From positions 1 to 42,176 of the forward strand of contig JBKHXZ010000187.1 of NCBI GenBank assembly GCA_046565785.1: 42,176 bases of DNA, written 5' to 3'. How positions within the stretch are numbered: the stretch's first letter is position 1; each line of letters begins with the position of its first letter. This stretch comes from Acidimicrobiia bacterium (GTDB taxonomy: Bacteria > Actinomycetota > Acidimicrobiia > Spongiisociales > ZC4RG35). This document shows, piece after piece, positions 3,554 through 30,587 of this stretch. The notes under the pieces are model-generated. The model saw only the letters and a program-made list of their open reading frames with translations. It had not been told where the DNA came from and searched no databases. The position numbers and the translations under genes were made by a program.

Positions 3554-4450
3554 TTGGCCTACAACGAGCACTTCGAGTTGCTGGAGTCGGTCGAACCGAC
3601 CGTCAAGCAACTCCTGGAGGAGCATCGCGCCCGGCGTAAGCCGTGGTACTTCCACGACCTCATCCCGTGGGAGCTGGGACGCAACTTCAAGACCGAACCG
3701 TGGGACGAATCCCAGGCGACACTCAACGAACGTGCGCGCACGTCCCTCGTCCTCAACCTCCTCACCGAAGACAACCTTCCGTACTACCACGTCACGCTCG
3801 AGCGTTACCTGCCGGAAGGGTCGATATGGCGGGAGTGGAACAACCTGTGGACGGCAGAGGAAGGCCAGCATGCCATCGCCATCCGCAGCTACCTGCTCAC
3901 CAGCCGCAACTGCGATCCGTACGAGCTGGAAGACGACCGGATGGCCACCATGACCGCCGGCTGGGAGCCGCGCTGGGATCATCCGGCAGAACTGTTCGCC
4001 TACACCTCCGCCCAGGAACTGGCGACTCGGGTGTCACACCGCAACGCCGGCAAGATCACCGACGACGAGACCGCCTACGAGCTGATGAAGCACATCGCCT
4101 CGGACGAGAACCATCACTTCCTGTTCTACAAGGGCGTGATGACCAAAATGCTCGAGGACCATCCCGAGGCCGCGCTCGAAGGGATCCTCAACACCTTCAG
4201 CAACTTCCAGATGCCCGGAACCGGCATCCCAGGCTATCTGCGTCGGTCCATCGAGATCGCCCGGGCCGGGGTGTACAACCTGCGGATCCACCACGACAAC
4301 GTGCTGTCGCCGCTCATCACCCAATGGGGTATCGATCGGCTGACCGGGATTTCGACCAGGGCGCAGGAACTGCAGGATCGGATCATGGCGTTACCCGCCG
4401 AGATCATCGCCAAGGCCGAACGCTTCGAAGCGAGGTTCGCCACTACCTGA
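3554..4450 (+). CDS. Acyl-ACP desaturase (DesA-like, ferritin-fold di-iron)
   Basis: LLTEDNLPYY, WTAEEGQH, QELATRVSH, DENHH di-iron motifs, FQMPG; probable TTG start at 3554 after GGAG. Confidence 0.9.
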   Translation: MAYNEHFELLESVEPTVKQLLEEHRARRKPWYFHDLIPWELGRNFKTEPWDESQATLNERARTSLVLNLLTEDNLPYYHVTLERYLPEGSIWREWNNLWTAEEGQHAIAIRSYLLTSRNCDPYELEDDRMATMTAGWEPRWDHPAELFAYTSAQELATRVSHRNAGKITDDETAYELMKHIASDENHHFLFYKGVMTKMLEDHPEAALEGILNTFSNFQMPGTGIPGYLRRSIEIARAGVYNLRIHHDNVLSPLITQWGIDRLTGISTRAQELQDRIMALPAEIIAKAERFEARFATT

Positions 4451-4453
4451 AAC

Positions 4454-5611
4454 TCAGGTCACGGGCGTTCCCAGCCGGCTCCAAGCGTCGTTCTGGGCCA
4501 GGTCGATCACCGTCCACGCCATCGACAGTGCACCGTCGACGATCGCTCGGTCCCCGTCAGGGGTGATCGTGTGGGCGGCGAACTCCGGCTGATGGTTGAC
4601 GTGCGGTGCGGCAGAGATGTCGAGCATCGGATGGATGGTCGGCACCAGGAGCGACACGTTGCCCATGTCGGTCGAACCCGTCCGATCGGGGGGTAGGTCC
4701 CGTCCGCGCAGCATCGGGCGCCCCAACTCTGCGCTGTTGGCCGCGTAGTACTCGACCATCGCCTGATCGCTCTTCATCTCCGTGTAGGTGTGACCGACAT
4801 GCTCGATCTCCACCTGGCAGCCGGTGGCCATGCCCGCCGCCTCGAAGCAGGCGACCACCCGGGGGAAGAGCTCGTCGAGCCGGTCGCTGGTCTGGGCCCG
4901 CACGTACCACGACGAGCGGGTGTAGGCGGGAATGATGTTGGGGGCGTGGCCACCCTCGCGGATCACACCGTGGATCTTGTCGGTGGGGTAGATCGATTGC
5001 CGCAGGGTCGAAACATTCACGTACGCTTGCACGAAGGCGTCCAGGGCGTTGATACCGAGCTGTGGATGCGCCGAGGCATGAGCCTCCTTGCCGTAGAAGT
5101 GGACGTCGATATGGGCCACGGCGATCACGTTGGGATCGACCACGTCTTCGGTGGACGGATGGATCATCATCGCCGCATCCACGCCTTCGAACGCCCCGGC
5201 GCCGATCAAGTCGACCTTTCCGCCGAAATGCTCTTCGGCCGGCGTACCGAGCACCGTGAGACGGATACCGAGGTCTTCGACCAGCGGCGCCAGCGCGGCG
5301 CCGGCTCCGACTGCTGCCGCGGCGATGATGTTGTGCCCGCACGCGTGGCCGACGCCTGGCAATGCGTCGTACTCGGCGCAGATGACGACATGCGGACCGT
5401 CAGAGCCGATCCGGGCGGCGAAGGCGGTCTCGAGGCCATATGCCGGATAGTCGACCTCGAATCCGACCTGACGGAGGAAATCGACGAGTCGGGCACTCGA
5501 CTCGCGTTCCTCGTAGGCGATCTCGGGGTGGTGATACATCCAGTGGCTGAGCTCGGTCAGATGCGACGTCACCGAGTCCAGACCGGCGCTGGCGCGTTCT
5601 TTGGCGTTCAA
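4454..5611 (-). CDS. M20 family amidohydrolase (PM20D2/AbgB-like)
   Basis: HPEIAYEE, AEYDAL, GHACGHN, TPAEE, MMIHP, GSTDMGNV; probable TTG start at 5611 after GGAG. Confidence 0.9.
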   Translation of the reverse strand: MNAKERASAGLDSVTSHLTELSHWMYHHPEIAYEERESSARLVDFLRQVGFEVDYPAYGLETAFAARIGSDGPHVVICAEYDALPGVGHACGHNIIAAAAVGAGAALAPLVEDLGIRLTVLGTPAEEHFGGKVDLIGAGAFEGVDAAMMIHPSTEDVVDPNVIAVAHIDVHFYGKEAHASAHPQLGINALDAFVQAYVNVSTLRQSIYPTDKIHGVIREGGHAPNIIPAYTRSSWYVRAQTSDRLDELFPRVVACFEAAGMATGCQVEIEHVGHTYTEMKSDQAMVEYYAANSAELGRPMLRGRDLPPDRTGSTDMGNVSLLVPTIHPMLDISAAPHVNHQPEFAAHTITPDGDRAIVDGALSMAWTVIDLAQNDAWSRLGTPVT

Positions 5612-22271: not shown

Positions 22272-22910
22272 TCAGGAACCCGGCACGAGGACGGTGTCGA
22301 TGATGTGGACGGTGGCGTTGGCGGTCTGGACGTTGCCGCAGATGACGCTGGCACCGTTGACAGTGATGGTGTCACCGTCGGTGGTGATGGTCAGGTCTGC
22401 TCCGTTGACGGTGGTCACGGTTCCGGCGTCGGCCAGGGCTTGGGCGTCGAGGGAGGCGCCTGCCACCACGTGGTAGGTGAGGATCGAGGTCAGCAGTTCG
22501 GTGTCGGCCAGGATCGCCTCGAGGTCTTCGGCCGGGATGGCGGCGAAGGCGTCGTTGTAGGGGGCGAAGATGGTGAACGGTCCTTCACTGTTGAGGGTGT
22601 CGACCAGTCCGGCTTCGACCACGGCGCTGACCAGGGTGGACAGGACCGGGTTGTTGGATGCGGCGGTGGCGGCCGGATCGTCGGCCATCCCGTCGAACGA
22701 ACCCTCACCGTCCATCGGCACTGCCGAGCACGCCGGTCCGAAGTTGACGGTGGACAGACCCATGTCGTCCATCTCTTCCATCGCCTCGGTGGTGGTCGTG
22801 GCGGGAGCCACGGTCGTGGTGGTCGTGTCTTCGGCGTCGCCGCTGCTGCAGGCGCCGAGAACCAGGGCGAAGATCGCCATGAGGGCGACCAGTCGTACGT
22901 GCTTTCTCAT
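22272..22910 (-). CDS. Fasciclin-domain lipoprotein (MPT83/MPT70-like)
   Basis: Lipobox LGAC, Thr-rich linker, FGPAC...GSFDGMADDPAATAASNNPVLSTL, FTIFAP, LTYHVV, VICGNVQTANATVHIIDTVL; RBS GAAAGGA. Confidence 0.93.
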   Translation of the reverse strand: MRKHVRLVALMAIFALVLGACSSGDAEDTTTTTVAPATTTTEAMEEMDDMGLSTVNFGPACSAVPMDGEGSFDGMADDPAATAASNNPVLSTLVSAVVEAGLVDTLNSEGPFTIFAPYNDAFAAIPAEDLEAILADTELLTSILTYHVVAGASLDAQALADAGTVTTVNGADLTITTDGDTITVNGASVICGNVQTANATVHIIDTVLVPGS

Positions 22911-22954
22911 CGTGTGTTCCTTTCGGTCTCGACCCTCGGTGGGGTCGGGGGTGG

Positions 22955-22981
22955 TTCGGAGCAGGGGGAGGGTTGGATTGG
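22955..22981 (-). promoter_or_regulatory. SigK-type promoter of the fasciclin gene
   Basis: Minus strand CCAATCC-aaccctccccctgct-CCGAAC. Confidence 0.8.
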
Positions 22982-24490
22982 TCAGGCGTCGACGAGGACC
23001 ACGATCGAATGCCACCCGGTCGCACCGTCGGGGATGGGCCGGGCCCGCTGTTCGGTTTGCACCGTGCCGGTGCCGTCGGTGGCACGGCAGGTGATCTGGT
23101 GTCGGCCGGGGGTGGCATCCCACGCCAGACGCCACTGCCGCCAGGTGACGTCGTTCAGCTCGTCGGCCAGTTCGGCGTCTTGCCAGGGACCGTCGTCGAT
23201 CTGCACTTCGACCCGTTCGATGCCTCGGGTCTGTGCCCATGCGACCCCGGCGATGGCGGTTCGACCGACCGGGATACGCCCAAGGGGGGCGGGAGTGTCG
23301 ATGCGGGATTGGGTCTTGATCGGTGCTCGAGGTGACCAGCCGCGATCGACCCAGTAGTGGTCGAACTGGTCGAAACGGGTCAGTTCGATCTCGGCCAGCC
23401 ATTTGGTTGCCGACACGTATCCGTACAGGCCGGGAACGATCAGCCGGGCCGGAAACCCGTGTTCCGGCGGGAGAGGTTCACCGTTCATGCCGATCGCCAC
23501 CAGGGCGTCCCTGCCGTCGAGGACCGAGACGGGGAACCCGCAGGTGTACCGGTCGACCGAGCGGCCCACGATCTGGTCGGCCTGTGGCTGGATTCCCGCC
23601 TCGGCCAGCAGGTCGTCGAGGCGGACGCCCAGCCAGCGGGCATTGCCGACCAGCTTGCCGCCGACCTCATTGGAGACACAGGTGAGCGTGATGTCGGATT
23701 CGACCAGTACTCGGTCGACGAGTTCGTCGAAGGTGATGCTGAACGGTCGGTCCACCATTCCGGATATCTGCAGGGTCCAGGTGTCGGGGTCGATACGGGG
23801 GACGGTGAGGGCGGTGTCGATTCGGTAGAAGTCGGTGTTGGGGGTGACGAAGGGATCCAGGCCGGGATCGGCGAACGACACTTCGTCGGGAATCGGATCG
23901 AGGGTTCGGTCGGGGCGGGGAAGCGCCAGCCGGGAGGGCTCGATGTCGAACCGGCGTCCGGCGGCGAAGCCGATCCCGCCAACGAGGACCGACGCCGCCG
24001 CCGCCGAACCGGCGATACGGAAGAACTGGCGCCGGGACGCGGCCAGATGGGGGTCCATCTGCGGTGTGTCTCGAACCAGCCACATGAGCACTGCGATCCC
24101 GACCCCGGCTCCGATCAGGCTGGGTAGAGCGCCGAGCAACCCGGCGGTGCCCACTGATGCGGAGACGGCCCCGATCAGCCCGAACAGTCCGACGCCGAAG
24201 GCCCCGAGGAGGCGGCTGCGCCGCGCTGCGATCACACCCACGGCAGCCGAGTACGCGAAGGTCAGGGTGGCGATCCCGACCAGGAGGGCGGGCTTGTCGG
24301 CGGTCCCGAACACGTCGATAGCGAACTCCTTGACCGCCGACGGCACGCCGTCGATCACCCGGTCGCCGACATCGAAGATCGGGTTGCGTAGGGCAGGAGA
24401 GAGCGCGGCGACAGCTTGAGCGGCGGCGAGTGCGGCCAGGGCCGCCACGGTTCCGGCGACCGCGCCGCGGGTACGAGATGTGGGGGTCAT
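22982..24490 (-). CDS. Membrane-anchored molybdopterin-dependent oxidoreductase (sulfite oxidase family)
   Basis: N-terminal TM domain (FGTADK), SRRQFF, FYRIDTAL, Mo-ligand TLTCVSN, GNARWLGV, HGFPARLIVPGLYGYVSATKW, C-terminal dimerisation domain AGVAWA...PDGATGWH. Confidence 0.92.
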   Translation of the reverse strand: MTPTSRTRGAVAGTVAALAALAAAQAVAALSPALRNPIFDVGDRVIDGVPSAVKEFAIDVFGTADKPALLVGIATLTFAYSAAVGVIAARRSRLLGAFGVGLFGLIGAVSASVGTAGLLGALPSLIGAGVGIAVLMWLVRDTPQMDPHLAASRRQFFRIAGSAAAASVLVGGIGFAAGRRFDIEPSRLALPRPDRTLDPIPDEVSFADPGLDPFVTPNTDFYRIDTALTVPRIDPDTWTLQISGMVDRPFSITFDELVDRVLVESDITLTCVSNEVGGKLVGNARWLGVRLDDLLAEAGIQPQADQIVGRSVDRYTCGFPVSVLDGRDALVAIGMNGEPLPPEHGFPARLIVPGLYGYVSATKWLAEIELTRFDQFDHYWVDRGWSPRAPIKTQSRIDTPAPLGRIPVGRTAIAGVAWAQTRGIERVEVQIDDGPWQDAELADELNDVTWRQWRLAWDATPGRHQITCRATDGTGTVQTEQRARPIPDGATGWHSIVVLVDA

Positions 24491-24498
24491 GGCCCAGG

Positions 24499-24525
24499 TT
24501 CGGAGCGGCTTCAGTCCCGGATGGG
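24499..24525 (-). promoter_or_regulatory. SigK-type promoter of the Mo-oxidoreductase (near-leaderless)
   Basis: Minus strand CCCATCC-gggactgaagccgct-CCGAA, 8 nt before the ATG at 24490. Confidence 0.8.
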
Positions 24526-26061: not shown

Positions 26062-26352
26062 CTAGAACGGGACTTCGGTCTGGAGCGCGACGACTTTCAC
26101 GTCGACCAGCTCCCCGTCGATGACGTCACCCACCTGCGGACCGACCAGCGCCTTCGCTCGTTGGCCGTCGGCCAGATCGAGGATGGCCGGCATGGTCTTG
26201 TCCGCCAGGGCAGCGTGCTTGTAGAGGCGGATCACCCCGCCCCAGGTGGCACCGGTTTCCGGGTCACGCCGTTCGAGGATCGCCTTTCCCACATCCACCA
26301 ACAGTCCGTTGGTGTCGAGGATGCGGGCGCGCCCGGTAAACGTGTCACTCAT
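26062..26352 (-). CDS. Hypothetical small beta-rich protein
   Basis: MSDTFTGRARILDTNG...WGGVI...EVPF, 96 aa, fills the gap between kynA and a repeat. Confidence 0.6.
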   Translation of the reverse strand: MSDTFTGRARILDTNGLLVDVGKAILERRDPETGATWGGVIRLYKHAALADKTMPAILDLADGQRAKALVGPQVGDVIDGELVDVKVVALQTEVPF

Positions 26353-26380
26353 GCCGCCGGCGAGAGTAGTCGGGTCCCCC

Positions 26381-26517
26381 GACGCGTTCTTAGCGGGCCA
26401 GCGCCGCACAGATGAGGCGCTCCGCGTATTGGAAATTGACGATCGCTGTGGGAGCGTGAAGCAAGTTCTTTTGCGCGAAACGCGTGATGGTTGAGGCGCT
26501 CACACGCTGAGCGCGTC
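26381..26517. repeat. REP-like family B, degenerate copy
   Basis: cgcgttcttagcgggccagcgc (26383-26404) matches 30438-30459 at 21/22; right end gcgaaacgcgtgat...gcgctca..cgct matches the right arm of 30442-30550. Confidence 0.7.
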
Positions 26518-27907
26518 AGCCGAGGGTGCGGAGGGCGTCCCAGAGGAGGAAGCCGCCGACGCTGGTCACGGCGAGGCCGGCGAGGGCGGGGACGAGGCGG
26601 CGGGGGAGGGCGATGCGCCGTTGGATCCGGTCGAGTCCGGCCTTCGACAGGCGGAGAGCCACGAGACCGGCGGCCACCAACGCCACCGACATGCCCACCC
26701 CGAACCCGAAGACCAGCAGCACCCCGAACCAGGGCCGACCGATCGCCACGGCTCCCAGCAACAGCACCACTGCCGACGCCGAGGGGACCAGGCCGCCGGC
26801 CAGCCCGAGCGCCGCCAGTGATCGCCAGCCCAGGTCGGGCAGTTCGTGGTGGTGGTGGTGGTGTTCGTGTTCGTCGTGGTGGCTGTGTGCGTGATGGTCG
26901 TGATCGTGATCGTGGTCGTGATCGTGATGAGCGCGGCCTCGGATGGCTTTCACCAGCAGCGCCACTCCCAGCCCGGTCACGATCAGTGCCGACCCCGTGG
27001 TCAGCCACGGGTACACCCGGTCGGGCTGGAAGGTGCTCGAGGCGACCGCCGTCACCAATCCCAACACGCCCACCCCGACGGTGTGGCTGACCGCCACTGC
27101 CAGGCCAAGCCCGACCGCCTGACGGGGGCGACCGCGGCGTCCCACCAGGTAGGCGGCCATCAGGGTCTTGCCGTGGCCGGGGGCGAGGGCGTGGGTGACC
27201 CCGAGCCCGACTGCCGCGACCAGGGCGACGAGCCCTCCCGCAGAACCGTCGGACGCAAGACCGGTCGCCAGACGGGCGGTGACCCCGTTCGAGTCGGGTT
27301 TCGCCAGGGCTGCTGCGGCGACCTCGCCGGCTTCTCCCAGTGTGATGGTGGCCTGCCGTTGGGCGAGTGGACTCGTGTCCGGATACTCGGTGAGAAGTTT
27401 GGACGGTGACGACGATGGAATCCCCTCGGCCGAACCGCCGGTCACCACCATCTCCACCCAGCCGATCCGCTCCTCGTAGACGAGGTTGGACACGTCGAGT
27501 GATCCGATACCGGCTGGCAGCGTGGCGGTGTAAGAGCATTCGACCCGCAGGGTGTGCAGGTCGCCTTCGCCCGGCAGCAGTGACGCGGTGCTGGTGGATG
27601 CCGTGAGAGCGATCGGCGTGGCGTCGGACTCGATCGCGAGTGTCTGCCGGTGCTCGGTGCACGAGGCTGCGGCGTAGGAGTCGAGTTCGTCGTCGCTCAT
27701 CGTCCCGTCGTCGTCTGCGTCGAGCGGCTCACGGAACGTGGGGATCTCCGCCATGTCGACGATCAGACGGACGTCGAGCCGGTCTTCGTCGATGTGGATA
27801 CCGAGATGCAGGTTGGTAGTGAAGTTCCCCAGCGGGTGGGCGAGGGCGGGCACAGCCACCGTGAGCAGTGTCCCGGTCAGGATCGTGAGGAGAAGGAGAC
27901 GCTTCAT
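26516..27907 (-). CDS. RcnA/HoxN-like Ni/Co transporter with N-terminal extracytoplasmic domain and His-rich loop
   Basis: Signal peptide ending ALA then HPLGNF; GVTHALAPGHGKT, SHTVGV, HHDHDHDHDHDHHAHSHHDEHEHHHHHH, GLVPSASA. Confidence 0.85.
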   Translation of the reverse strand: MKRLLLLTILTGTLLTVAVPALAHPLGNFTTNLHLGIHIDEDRLDVRLIVDMAEIPTFREPLDADDDGTMSDDELDSYAAASCTEHRQTLAIESDATPIALTASTSTASLLPGEGDLHTLRVECSYTATLPAGIGSLDVSNLVYEERIGWVEMVVTGGSAEGIPSSSPSKLLTEYPDTSPLAQRQATITLGEAGEVAAAALAKPDSNGVTARLATGLASDGSAGGLVALVAAVGLGVTHALAPGHGKTLMAAYLVGRRGRPRQAVGLGLAVAVSHTVGVGVLGLVTAVASSTFQPDRVYPWLTTGSALIVTGLGVALLVKAIRGRAHHDHDHDHDHDHHAHSHHDEHEHHHHHHELPDLGWRSLAALGLAGGLVPSASAVVLLLGAVAIGRPWFGVLLVFGFGVGMSVALVAAGLVALRLSKAGLDRIQRRIALPRRLVPALAGLAVTSVGGFLLWDALRTLG

Positions 27908-29175
27908 CGTTCTGCCAGTAGTTCGGTGGCGTGGTCCGCCCAGATGGGATGGAAGTTCGGTTGCAGTTCGAGTGCGGCCTGCAGCCGAGTACGAGCCAGG
28001 TCGGCATCGCCGTTGGCGTGGGCGATGAGCCCCGCCCGGTACCAGACGACCGGGTCCGCAACGGTGATCGCCCGGACGGCGTGAGTCTCGGCTTCGGAAA
28101 ACCGTCCCAAGGCTGCCAGCACGGTGGCCATCAGATGGTGGCCGTAGGCATCGTCGCGTTCGGCCAGTTCGGTTTCGGCCATCGACAAGGCCAGTTCGAG
28201 CGCCCGGCCGTGGTCGGCCAGCACTTGGGCGGTCTGACGGCGGAGGGCGGGCTGGTCGAGGGCGGCGATCGCCTCCACGGTGTCCAGTTGTGCGTCCGCT
28301 CCGGCGACGTCTCCGGAGGCTGCCAGCACGTCGGCGAGGAAGCCGAGCGCGGCCGGGTCGGGGGAAACGGATGCGGCGTGTTGTGCCTGAGTGATCGCCT
28401 CGTCCAGGTCAGCGGTGGCCGCGGCGGCACGAGCAGACAGGAGCAGGGCAGCAGGATCGTTGGGGGCGAGTCCGAGGGCATCTTCGGCGAGTCCTCGGGC
28501 GCGATCTGGGTCACCGAACAACAGGTGATAGCGGGCAACGGCAGACCGGTAGAAGACGAGGTCGGCAGCGGGGAGGGAGGCGTCTTCGGCACGGCCGAGT
28601 GCCTCTTCAGCCGCGTCGATCGCTCGATCCGGCATGCCTGTGTAGAGGGCCAGTTCGGCACGGCGGATCAGGATGGCGGGCTCATGCGGATGGAGCCGCT
28701 CGAGGGCGGCGACCTCGTCGGCGGCGTCGGGGAGGCGACCGAGACCCAGCAGGGCGTCGAAAGAGACCGAGCGACGGGCGATGGAGTCGTTGGTGACTTC
28801 GTCGAGTTCGCCCAGTGCCCCGGCGAAGTCGTGCAGAGCCAATCGGGCGCGGGCCAGGTCGATCGCCAGGTCCGGGGTTCGGTCGACTGCGGCGGCGGTT
28901 TCGAGGTGGACGAGCGCACGGTCGTAGTCGTCGAGGTCGTTACCGATCGATGCTCGTTCCAGGTAGAGGCTGCCGAGCCGTGCACGGTTCAGCCAGCTGG
29001 AGGGCTCGGCTTCGACCCGGGCGGCGAACACGCCGATCAGGCGGTCGAGCTCGGTCGGGTCGACGGTGGCCGTGCGGAAACGGACCGGCACTTCTGTGTC
29101 GAGGGCGGCGTTGGCCGCATACAACCCGCCGAGAGTGACGGCGAGAATGACGGTGAGGGCGAGGAGGCGTCGCAT
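27904..29175 (-). CDS. Exported tetratricopeptide-repeat protein
   Basis: N-terminal signal/anchor and Ala-rich TPR helices (LGSLYLERA, ALHDFAGAL, DALLGLGR, WYRAGLIA, ALELQPNFHP); stop overlaps the transporter start. Confidence 0.82.
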   Translation of the reverse strand: MRRLLALTVILAVTLGGLYAANAALDTEVPVRFRTATVDPTELDRLIGVFAARVEAEPSSWLNRARLGSLYLERASIGNDLDDYDRALVHLETAAAVDRTPDLAIDLARARLALHDFAGALGELDEVTNDSIARRSVSFDALLGLGRLPDAADEVAALERLHPHEPAILIRRAELALYTGMPDRAIDAAEEALGRAEDASLPAADLVFYRSAVARYHLLFGDPDRARGLAEDALGLAPNDPAALLLSARAAAATADLDEAITQAQHAASVSPDPAALGFLADVLAASGDVAGADAQLDTVEAIAALDQPALRRQTAQVLADHGRALELALSMAETELAERDDAYGHHLMATVLAALGRFSEAETHAVRAITVADPVVWYRAGLIAHANGDADLARTRLQAALELQPNFHPIWADHATELLAER

Positions 29176-29189
29176 GGGGCGAGGTGAGG

Positions 29190-29228
29190 TGTCGGGGAGA
29201 CGGGCGGAAGGATCCCGCCTCCCCGACA
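29190..29228 (-). terminator. Intra-operon stem-loop after the DUF4331 gene
   Basis: tgtcggggagacggg / cccgcctccccgaca, 14/15 complementary. Confidence 0.65.
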
Positions 29229-29236
29229 GACCTGAC

Positions 29237-30358
29237 TCAGCTGTGCGGGTTCCCGAGGTACGGGAACACCGTCAGGTAGTCGTCGTGCGGTCCGACGCCG
29301 TCGGAGTTGATGGCTCCATCGGCATCCCGGTCCCCGAACAACCCCAGCGGGTCACCTCCGGTGACGATCCGCAACTCGATGTCGATGACATCGTCCGCCA
29401 GCGCACGGCCGTTGAGCGGACCCACTGCCTCGGTCGCCGTGTCGTACCGGAGCACGTCCGGCAACAACACTCCGGCCAGAGCCACGAGCTGGTCGTTGCT
29501 GTACGGACCTTCGGTGTCGAGCGACGAAAACGCGGTCAGGGCTGCAGCCGCCGCCGGGATGAACTGGGCGTCGTCCTTGGGATGGCTGGCGTTGAACAGC
29601 GCCTTGTTGGCGGGATCGGCGTTGACGATCGGGCCGGTCGAGTTGACCACCGTGTTGATCGCCGGACGACCCATCCGGTCGGCCTGCTGCCAGACACCTT
29701 CGGCGTTGGGGGCACTGGTGGTCGCCCACACCGCGATCTGGCCACCGAGAACCTCGTCCGGCACCTCGATCACGATCGCCAGCACGTTGAGGTTGGCGAA
29801 GAAGTCGGTCGGGTCGTCGCCGAACGCGTCGTCGCCCGCTGCTTCGACCGTGCCGAGGAACCCGGTGAGGTCGAAGAAGAACGGGTCGGAACGCAGGCCG
29901 GCGAACACCTGTCCGCCGTCACGCAGCGCCAGGGTCTGGCCGACATCACCGCGAGCGATGAGCTTGCCATCGGGCTCGAGGCTGGTGGCGTCATCGCCGG
30001 TGGCCATCCGCACTTGCACCATCTGCGGGTTCGGTCCCCGATCGATGAAATCGAACTGGAACGTGACGTCTTCGATGGTGTCCCCGTCGTTGTCGATCCG
30101 AAGTTGGTATCCGGCGACGTCCTTGTGGGCGAAGTCGGTCCCGGCGATCACACCGGCGGCGGGTGCCACGGTCATGGCCAGTACGGTGTTCGACGGGTCG
30201 GATCCTTCGAACGCGTACAGGTCGTTTATGTCGGTCTGGGCGTCGCCGGCGGCGGGACTGTCCAGATGGTCGGCGGCGCCGGCACCGGCGATCGGCGCGG
30301 CGAGTGCGAGCACCAGGCCAGCGACCAACGCGGGGCGGGCCCATGGTCTCTTTCTCAT
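29237..30358 (-). CDS. DUF4331-family secreted protein
   Basis: Signal peptide then ADHLDSP, DINDLYAF, VFAGLRSDPFFFDL, DRMGRPAINT, NGRALADDVIDIEL, FPYLGNPH (motifs recognised from memory). Confidence 0.85.
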   Translation of the reverse strand: MRKRPWARPALVAGLVLALAAPIAGAGAADHLDSPAAGDAQTDINDLYAFEGSDPSNTVLAMTVAPAAGVIAGTDFAHKDVAGYQLRIDNDGDTIEDVTFQFDFIDRGPNPQMVQVRMATGDDATSLEPDGKLIARGDVGQTLALRDGGQVFAGLRSDPFFFDLTGFLGTVEAAGDDAFGDDPTDFFANLNVLAIVIEVPDEVLGGQIAVWATTSAPNAEGVWQQADRMGRPAINTVVNSTGPIVNADPANKALFNASHPKDDAQFIPAAAAALTAFSSLDTEGPYSNDQLVALAGVLLPDVLRYDTATEAVGPLNGRALADDVIDIELRIVTGGDPLGLFGDRDADGAINSDGVGPHDDYLTVFPYLGNPHS

Positions 30359-30408
30359 TGTCTACTCCCTGTCTCCACGGCCGTGTGTCGGCCGTTCTCC
30401 AGGGATGG

Positions 30409-30435
30409 TTCGGACCCGAGCCCCCGGCGGATTGG
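30409..30435 (-). promoter_or_regulatory. SigK-type promoter of the DUF4331 operon
   Basis: Minus strand CCAATCC-gccgggggctcgggt-CCGAAC. Confidence 0.8.
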
Positions 30436-30441
30436 TCCGCG

Positions 30442-30550
30442 TTCTTAGCGAGCCAGCGCGCGAAAAATCGCGCGATCTGCATGCCAAAACGCGAGTCCGG
30501 ATTTCTGGCACGCGAAACGCGCGATTTTTCGCGCGCTCATTCGCTAAGAA
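30442..30550. repeat. REP-like family B long palindrome
   Basis: ttcttagcga..agcgcgcgaaaaatcgcgcg..tgcca / tggca..cgcgcgatttttcgcgcgct..tcgctaagaa. Confidence 0.85.
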
Positions 30551-30587
30551 TCCGGTGGTCTCCGGTGGTCTCCGGTGGTCTCCGGTG
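30551..30587. repeat. 10-bp tandem repeat (tccggtggtc) x3.7
   Basis: tccggtggtc tccggtggtc tccggtggtc tccggtg, directly after the hspR stop. Confidence 0.9.

Follow-up and report, generated by a model that had tools for sequence, protein, structure and literature searches.

On the minus strand of contig C187 of an Acidimicrobiia bacterium (JBKHXZ010000187.1 in GCA_046565785.1, a 2.75-Mb assembly of 313 contigs) lie three co-oriented open reading frames (ORFs; 26516-30358), which encode a DUF4331 protein, a tetratricopeptide repeat (TPR) protein and a permease. The whole contig, 42,176 nt, was analyzed and is referred to as the window; close homologues of its genes carry Acidimicrobiia labels. 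The initial annotation had described three co-oriented genes for exported or membrane proteins behind the sequence CCAATCC-N15-CCGAA, and both the ORFs and the motif were found where it had placed them, as was the proposed 4-bp overlap of the TPR and permease ORFs (ATGA, 27904-27907). The end of the motif's -10-like element and the start codon of the DUF4331 gene are about 50 nt apart, with a GGGAG ribosome-binding site in between. The coordinates of all features are collected in Table 1.

Table 1. Features of the DUF4331-TPR-permease locus and of the co-regulated genes in the window.
Feature	Position	Strand	Remarks
DUF4331 gene	29237-30358	(-)	373 aa; predicted signal peptide residues 1-28, mature from Ala29
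TPR protein gene	27904-29175	(-)	423 aa
Permease gene	26516-27907	(-)	463 aa
SigK-type promoter, CCAATCC-N15-CCGAA	30409-30435	(-)	
Ala29-Asp30-His31 codons	30266-30274	(-)	predicted mature NH2-X-X-His tip, ATCUN-type
Intercistronic GC-rich hairpin	29191-29227	(-)	in the DUF4331/TPR gap
Permease signal peptide	27839-27907	(-)	residues 1-23, ...VPALA↓H (predicted)
Permease outer domain	27233-27838	(-)	residues 24-225, beta-sandwich; AlphaFold2 model, conservation
RcnA/NicO-type six-helix membrane domain	26516-27232	(-)	
HALAPGHGK motif	27167-27193	(-)	permease residues 239-247
Cytoplasmic His-rich loop of permease	26843-26932	(-)	
Molybdopterin oxidoreductase gene and motif	22982-24525	(-)	gene start 24490; membrane-anchored
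Fasciclin lipoprotein gene and motif	22272-22981	(-)	gene start 22910

The first protein matches PF14224 (E 7e-43, 147.8 bits with a cut-off of 27) and also stood above the cut-off in the whole-genome search. Its leader ends ...AGAGA↓ADHLDSP (arrows mark cleavage sites, which were predicted from the (-3,-1) rule, hydrophobicity and family conservation), in agreement with the earlier proposal that cleavage after AGA leaves a protein starting Ala-Asp-His. Among 1.84 billion representatives searched, 2574 relatives of DUF4331 stood at E <= 0.001, and in 50 diverse homologues H31 is invariant while D30 is conserved in at least 90%. The tip was then surveyed in the best 150 representatives. An N-terminal extension is present in 111 of them, with Ala (99), Ser (11) or Thr (1) before Asp-His, and in 104 of these 111 a hydrophobic segment and a (-3,-1) site stand exactly before [Ala/Ser/Thr]-Asp-His. 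Another 22 are leaderless and without exception begin Met-[Ala/Ser/Gly]-[Asp/His/Asn]-His, so that methionine excision would bring them to the same X-X-His end. The regular expression found no motif in the other 17, most of which are fragments; P0133 truly lacks the His, and P0188 is a miss of the regular expression. A distant subfamily, SSHREAP, which is found beside the permease in other Actinomycetota, reads ...↓Ser-Ser-His-Arg-Glu in 35 of 37 loci, one further locus having Ala-Asp-His and one a partial gene. The initial annotation had suggested testing whether His is conserved at mature position 3 across the family; on these counts it is kept in 104/111 exported, 22/22 leaderless and 36/37 distant actinobacterial cases. 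Leaderless genes starting M-S-H-H-Y-S-G-P were observed in Acidobacteriota and other phyla (L045, L047, L055, L075-L079 and similar loci).

ATCUN sites are amino-terminal Cu/Ni sites, of which the Asp-Ala-His end of serum albumin is an example. The predicted mature end of DUF4331 shares with them a free alpha-amine (predicted), a residue other than Pro at position 2 and His at position 3, and thereby has the sequence of an ATCUN site. Unlike such sites, DUF4331 also conserves an acidic residue at position 5 and Pro at position 7, which suggests more than a minimal ATCUN site. No conserved ATCUN end in DUF4331 or in any exported bacterial family was found in the literature searched, and no paper on DUF4331 or SSHREAP in the searched library, although the supplement of PMC7826278, on the genetic context of extracytoplasmic function (ECF) sigma factors, may mention the genes.

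The AlphaFold2 (AF2) model of DUF4331 (mean predicted local distance difference test, pLDDT, 89.3; predicted TM-score 0.87) has an Ig-like beta-sandwich as its core, as judged by model comparison. Foldseek returned generic Ig-like matches alone (best TM 0.17), and VIA-align gave antibody Fv domains at a best Z of 8.3, with no family nameable from them. A sequence search of the PDB gave no match at E <= 1, and the ESM Atlas, with PF14224 clusters excluded, no usable match. Among 18 long DUF4331 relatives that were scanned, C-terminal domains were CHRD in eight, SLH in four, Spondin_N in two and RTX in one (P0125, P0127, P0128, P0134, P0137, P0203, P0122, P0126, P0161 and P0230 are such fusions). 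The DUF4331-CHRD fusions, together with the promoter motif that the DUF4331 gene shares with a separate CHRD gene in this genome, link two domains of unknown bacterial function.

The membrane part of the permease, six hydrophobic segments that follow an outer domain, matches Pfam PF03824 NicO (residues 230-352, 39.6 bits, cut-off 27.7) and the RcnA-type family NF007454 of NCBIfam at 108.3 bits (residues 229-355), which is below the family cut-off of 195. We take the hallmarks of RcnA/NicO proteins to be an H-x-x-x-PGH-G/S-K motif in helix 1, a central His-rich loop and six helices, and all of these are present. The HALAPGHGK motif and the 28-residue His-rich run of the initial annotation were recovered at residues 239-247 and 327-354, and the positive-inside rule together with hydropathy puts the His-rich loop in the cytoplasm and residues 24-222 outside. 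Homologues number 4128 at E <= 0.001 among 8000 scored; in 23 full-length ones HALAPGHGK is invariant, SHT and GGLVPSASA are also kept, and the length of the His-rich loop varies. The protein had been called an RcnA/HoxN-type transporter, and of this label the RcnA half holds in the sense of RcnA-like, by the NicO and NF007454 profile matches. The signature of HoxN/NixA NiCoT proteins is presumably H-x4-D-H in a transmembrane helix; the only such match in the permease, at residue 328, falls inside the soluble His-rich loop and none lies in the helices, so that the HoxN half was dropped. A PDB sequence search with the permease gave His-tag artefacts alone. Compared with RcnA, the Ni/Co efflux protein of Escherichia coli, the permease has the same helix-1 motif, helix number and central loop, but it bears an extra 200-residue exported domain with an N-terminal His (His1), is encoded together with DUF4331 and a TPR protein, and scores below the family cut-off.

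This exported domain begins at a predicted cleavage site, ...VPALA↓HPLGNF, as proposed earlier for a mature protein starting His-Pro. The sequence A↓HPLGNF is nearly invariant; H24 is conserved in at least 90% of 23 full-length and 29 domain sequences, and two Cys of the domain are invariant in the 23 full-length homologues and kept in at least 90% of the 29 rows of the domain alignment. Pfam gave no match to it at E <= 10, so that DUF1007, which had been considered as its family, has no support from sequence. The domain modelled alone reached a pLDDT of 84.3, and the top Foldseek match of the model was the Cu-bound Ang-1 structure 9GCE (E 5.2e-6, probability 1.00, TM 0.42/0.49). A second structural alignment again placed 9GCE first (Z 9.7, rmsd 3.6, 138 aligned residues), followed by ZrgA (Z 8.2 and 7.8) and PA4063 (Z 7.0), with unrelated chains at 5.8 or below. 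At this moderate similarity, with identities to 9GCE of 15-17% and TM-scores of 0.42-0.49, the first ~200 exported residues appear to form a separate Ang-1/ZrgA-like domain, which by analogy may bind metal; the earlier reading of the permease had not recognized it. ZrgA of Vibrio cholerae (8EZW, 8F1B) and PA4063 of Pseudomonas aeruginosa (7AHW) belong to the same beta-sandwich class and are periplasmic zinc-binding proteins, yet they are free-standing, share only 10-12% identity with the outer domain and imply no His1 mechanism. Both are accessory metal binders that act as partners of ABC-type zinc importers.

For Ang domains, the report by Franco Cairo et al. (Nat Commun 2025, PMC12537917) gives binding of Cu(II) at 62-74 nM via His1 and a weak oxidase activity, and proposes that they 'fish' metal for the HupE/UreJ-2 permease to which they are fused. 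As in these anglerase-permeases (Ang-1 or Ang-2 on HupE/UreJ-2), removal of a signal peptide, predicted here, would expose His1 on an Ig-like beta-sandwich that is linker-fused to a multi-helix metal permease. Unlike them, the membrane part is of the RcnA/NicO type (PF03824) and not HupE/UreJ-2 (PF13795), Pfam giving NicO and DsbD_2 alone, and the fusion is nearly always accompanied by DUF4331. NicO, DUF4331, TPR and ATCUN are not mentioned in the text of PMC12537917. By analogy, the permease may work like an anglerase-permease, yet it stands outside that family as defined.

The linkage of the three genes was assessed in both directions. In the forward test, 80 loci with DUF4331 relatives, many of them truncated, were searched by tblastn (E <= 1e-4) within 8 kb. 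The TPR protein was found in 51 loci and the permease outer domain in 28, all 28 also with TPR, while a SigK-like sigma factor was detected in 21, RskA in 13, fasciclin and the molybdopterin (Mo) oxidoreductase in four each and CHRD in three. Leaderless M-S-H-H genes (Acidobacteriota and others) account for 17 of the 80 loci, with no permease or SigK and two weak TPR matches; the remaining 63 loci hold 49 TPR, 28 permease and 21 SigK matches. In some Chloroflexia loci whose flank is complete, TPR is present without an adjacent permease. The outer-domain profile matches 58 of 301 Actinomycetota genomes (53 of 296 without five unpublished genomes, which enter no other result), and for the reverse test 40 regions around such a match were taken from 38 published Actinomycetota genomes. 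The outer domain is fused to a NicO membrane domain in all 40, DUF4331 lies within 7 kb in 37, TPR is present in 31 and SigK in 20; two of the three regions without DUF4331 stop at contig edges. The gene-neighbourhood survey that the initial annotation had suggested thus finds the three genes linked across phyla, with TPR by DUF4331 in 51/80 and DUF4331 by the permease in 37/40 cases, and chance adjacency is ruled out by these counts.

The TPR protein scores above the cut-off with several Pfam repeat families (TPR_2 53 bits, TPR_14 51.9, TPR_16 51.3, TPR_19 48.9 and others). It has a single N-terminal hydrophobic segment, either a signal anchor or a signal peptide, and prediction places the TPR body outside the membrane. 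When TPR residues 25-423 and DUF4331 residues 29-373 were modelled as a complex, the score was 0.15 (mark 0.32), which speaks neither for nor against an interaction. In the gap that separates the DUF4331 and TPR genes, the hairpin that had been noted after the first gene was located as a 14-bp stem with a 9-nt loop and no U-tract (dG -36.4 kcal/mol, z -4.16, equalled in none of 200 shuffles). Hairpins of unrelated sequence with dG <= -28 kcal/mol follow the DUF4331 stop in 41 of 44 related loci, compared with 19 of 176 random windows of those loci (Mann-Whitney p 8e-21). As the gap between the two genes is only 61 nt, TPR and permease must be transcribed through the hairpin. It is a candidate partial terminator or 3' mRNA stabilizer, and its purpose would likely be a differential abundance or stability of the mRNA. 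The abundance of DUF4331 that the initial annotation proposed would follow from this hairpin.

The promoter motif occurs in three exact copies in the window with 0.05 expected, a number reached in none of 100 shuffles, and all three are on the minus strand (30409-30435, 22955-22981 and 792-818). The copy at 22955-22981 precedes the fasciclin lipoprotein gene, and a one-mismatch copy, CCCATCC-N15-CCGAA (24499-24525), stands before the Mo-oxidoreductase gene, the ATG of which is 9 nt beyond. Genome-wide, further exact copies precede a sigK-rskA pair (contig C39) and the CHRD gene (C59); a copy in C113 sits within long ORFs that overlap one another and was discounted as a probable chance occurrence. 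The ECF sigma factor of this pair has NF007228 SigK as its top NCBIfam match (214.3 bits, just below the cut-off of 226; next family 133), and the anti-sigma factor matches PF10099 RskA_C (80.2 bits, cut-off 29.4) and NF052375 (157.9, cut-off 100). At a distance of 66-110 nt before DUF4331, AATCC-N15/16-CCGAA is present in nine of 79 related loci, seven of which carry an Acidimicrobiia or Acidimicrobiales label, and in many loci of other lineages sigK-rskA directly adjoin the module. The proposal of a SigK-type promoter and of co-control with the fasciclin and Mo-oxidoreductase genes thus finds the motif before the genome's own sigma/RskA_C pair and before the CHRD, fasciclin and, with one mismatch, Mo-oxidoreductase genes; the label "SigK-type" derives from this pair and the shared targets, not from a published consensus. 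Control of the module by a SigK/RskA-type ECF system is supported by these sequence data.

Several further observations concern the other copies of the motif. Leaders of the DUF4331, fasciclin and CHRD transcripts would be about 45-50 nt long. The first of two candidate ATGs of sigK (C39 ~1670-1706) lies 6 nt past the -10-like element, and the Met used for the family scans 87 nt downstream. Since the ATG is only 9 and 6 nt past the -10-like element, respectively, the Mo-oxidoreductase and sigK transcripts may be leaderless. The CHRD protein, encoded by a separate gene (C59 ~4101-4628) under the same motif as DUF4331, has a predicted cleavage site, ...NRAANA↓GHTNP, that would leave His at mature position 2 and thereby give the regulon a further N-terminal His arrangement. 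The copy at 792-818 falls between the end of a convergent ABC-ATPase gene (660) and the start of another gene (861); no plausible ORF follows this copy, which could drive a small or antisense RNA.

The identical motif before the sigK and fasciclin genes fits an autoregulated promoter shared with a fasciclin (mpt70/83-like) target. SigK-binding sites are reported to be highly conserved among Actinobacteria (PMC7509140), the mycobacterial SigK-RskA pair is described as redox-sensitive (PMC7826278), and its physiological role is said to be still 'to be elucidated' (PMC4105308). Like the mycobacterial regulon with mpt70/mpt83 (PMC7509140, PMC4105308), the present one combines an ECF sigma factor that has SigK as its best NCBIfam match, just below the cut-off, with an RskA_C anti-sigma factor and is small, with an exported fasciclin protein among its members. 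It differs in that DUF4331-TPR-permease, CHRD and the Mo-oxidoreductase are added, and in that SigK lacks the two redox cysteines. The SigK of this genome is in fact free of cysteine, which excludes the published redox switch in this case.

Upstream of DUF4331, on the same strand, lies hspR (NCBIfam match), and beyond it three ORFs that, judged by translation alone, look like dnaJ, grpE and dnaK. Right after the hspR stop codon, head-to-tail copies of the 10-nt unit GGAGACCACC (minus strand) fill 30551-30587. Between this stop and the SigK-type promoter, 30437-30555 forms an inverted repeat with 53-nt arms (RNA fold dG -86.7 kcal/mol, z -8.4). As an arm of about 40 nt recurs on at least nine other contigs of the genome, the repeat is a palindromic element resembling the repetitive extragenic (REP) or miniature inverted-repeat transposable (MITE) kind, and a 22-nt piece of it is also found at 26383-26404, just downstream of the permease. 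A 115-aa ORF that follows the permease (26062-26409, minus strand) has no family match; an ORF with 66% identity occupies the equivalent position in the closest related locus, L002, and none was detected elsewhere. No Rfam family matched anywhere in the window at gathering thresholds.

Taken together, we read the module as a conserved, uncharacterized extracytoplasmic system for a transition metal, most likely Cu(II)/Ni(II), under a SigK/RskA-type switch, a reading in which belief and doubt are evenly balanced. A relay from the DUF4331 tip to the His1 domain and the RcnA-type channel is part of it, and in this relay, too, our confidence goes halfway. Release of SigK by RskA would start transcription at the promoter, and the hairpin may make the DUF4331 mRNA longer-lived or more plentiful than the TPR-permease message produced by read-through. 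Exported DUF4331, once cut, would present an NH2-Ala-Asp-His tip that could hold metal in the manner of an ATCUN site, and the exported and cut permease would present His1 on its Ang-1/ZrgA-like beta-sandwich, atop a six-helix channel of the RcnA type whose His-rich loop is cytoplasmic. Metal would be exchanged among tip, His1 domain and channel, with the membrane-anchored TPR protein possibly holding DUF4331 close to the permease. Capture and import is a possible direction of transport, if on the doubtful side; it is conceivable because the relatives of the outer domain include metal-capture proteins, among them ZrgA, PA4063 and also Ang-1, which PMC12537917 proposes for uptake. Export combined with sequestration, or metallation of DUF4331, is conceivable because the nearest characterized relative of the membrane domain exports and because ECF control is more typical of stress responses, and we consider it unlikely.

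Several observations weigh against a metal system. The metal link of every part comes from sequence and models, and the permease, under the NCBIfam cut-off for RcnA (108 vs 195), is RcnA-like and not a member by the NCBI rule. Control is by an ECF sigma factor, and no recognizable metal-sensing repressor or riboswitch was found (Rfam: none in the window). Positions 5 (Asp/Glu) and 7 (Pro) of mature DUF4331 are conserved although a plain ATCUN site needs neither; the geometry of the site cannot be read from the AF2 model, where pLDDT is below 50 at residues 29-32 and 34-36; and the other conserved polar residues are nearly all Asp, which would fit Ca2+ or a structural role. Leaderless, presumably cytoplasmic DUF4331 proteins keep the X-X-His start without the module neighbours (permease or SigK in 0/17), and 23 of the 51 loci with TPR, several of them with full flank, have no permease within 8 kb. 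The fusions of DUF4331 with CHRD, Spondin_N, SLH and RTX domains, finally, point to a role at the cell surface or in a matrix.

This last point leads to another explanation, in which DUF4331 works at the cell surface or in a matrix, or acts on the envelope as an enzyme, and stands beside fasciclin and CHRD in the SigK regulon. Its conserved N-terminal segment would then either be structural or serve the TPR protein as a docking peptide, TPR domains being common binders of terminal peptides, and the permease would at most supply a cofactor. Such a role agrees with the CHRD (8/18), SLH (4), Spondin_N (2) and RTX (1) domains of the long relatives, the promoter motif shared with separate CHRD and fasciclin genes, the Ig-like core, and the conservation at positions 5 and 7 beyond what ATCUN binding needs. 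However, it leaves unexplained why His is fixed at position 3 in exported and leaderless forms alike and why an RcnA-type permease with a His1 domain is the partner in 37/40 regions of the reverse test, and no carbohydrate- or peptidoglycan-active family was detected in the Pfam/NCBIfam scans; we regard it as quite unlikely. A membrane protein that is no metal transporter at all, being instead a DsbD/CcdA-like or other LysE-superfamily carrier in a module for envelope folding or thiol redox, would have a parallel in DipZ of the mycobacterial SigK regulon, where dipZ lies between mpt83 and mpt70. Pfam does place DsbD_2 at residues 279-433 (37.2 bits, cut-off 24.9), but at 108 bits the match to the RcnA profile is much stronger. 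His, Gly, Pro and Ser make up the invariant residues of the membrane part (HALAPGHGK, SHT, GGLVPSASA), the helices have no Cys pair, and the His-rich loop and the His1 Ang-like domain are hallmarks of metal handling, so that this explanation appears extremely improbable.

DUF4331 could also serve envelope redox defence as a secreted Cu- or Ni-dependent metalloenzyme, for example a scavenger of reactive oxygen, loaded by an RcnA-type exporter via the His1 domain and induced together with the Mo enzyme, which resembles methionine sulfoxide reductase. The co-regulated, membrane-anchored molybdopterin oxidoreductase indeed has weak similarity to MsrP and sulfite dehydrogenase, the membrane domain has an exporter as its closest characterized relative, the His-rich loop faces the cytoplasm, and mycobacterial SigK-RskA is described as redox-sensitive (PMC7826278). 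Against this, the cysteine-free SigK makes the published switch inapplicable, only one His is invariant in DUF4331, a conserved cluster of Cys, Met or Tyr that could form a catalytic redox site is absent, and the oxidase activity reported for Ang domains in PMC12537917 was weak. We therefore hold redox defence to be very unlikely.

The preferred reading of a transition-metal system can be sharpened into a tentative proposal, which we regard as possible: DUF4331 would be a new class of exported protein 'metallophore', a beta-sandwich whose X-X-His tip captures Cu(II)/Ni(II) and relays it to a His1 'angler' permease, held by the TPR protein, boosted by the hairpin and delivered as an output of SigK/RskA. 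If this is true, the long-unexplained SigK regulon gains a function in metal homeostasis. Confirmation would carry the recently described 'anglerase' principle beyond HupE/UreJ to permeases of the RcnA type, give bacterial metal homeostasis a secreted ATCUN protein and tie the SigK-RskA switch to metal handling at the cell surface. DUF4331 is a large family without a solved relative, and its fixed NH2-X-X-His end together with its near-obligate His1-permease partner makes its function testable.

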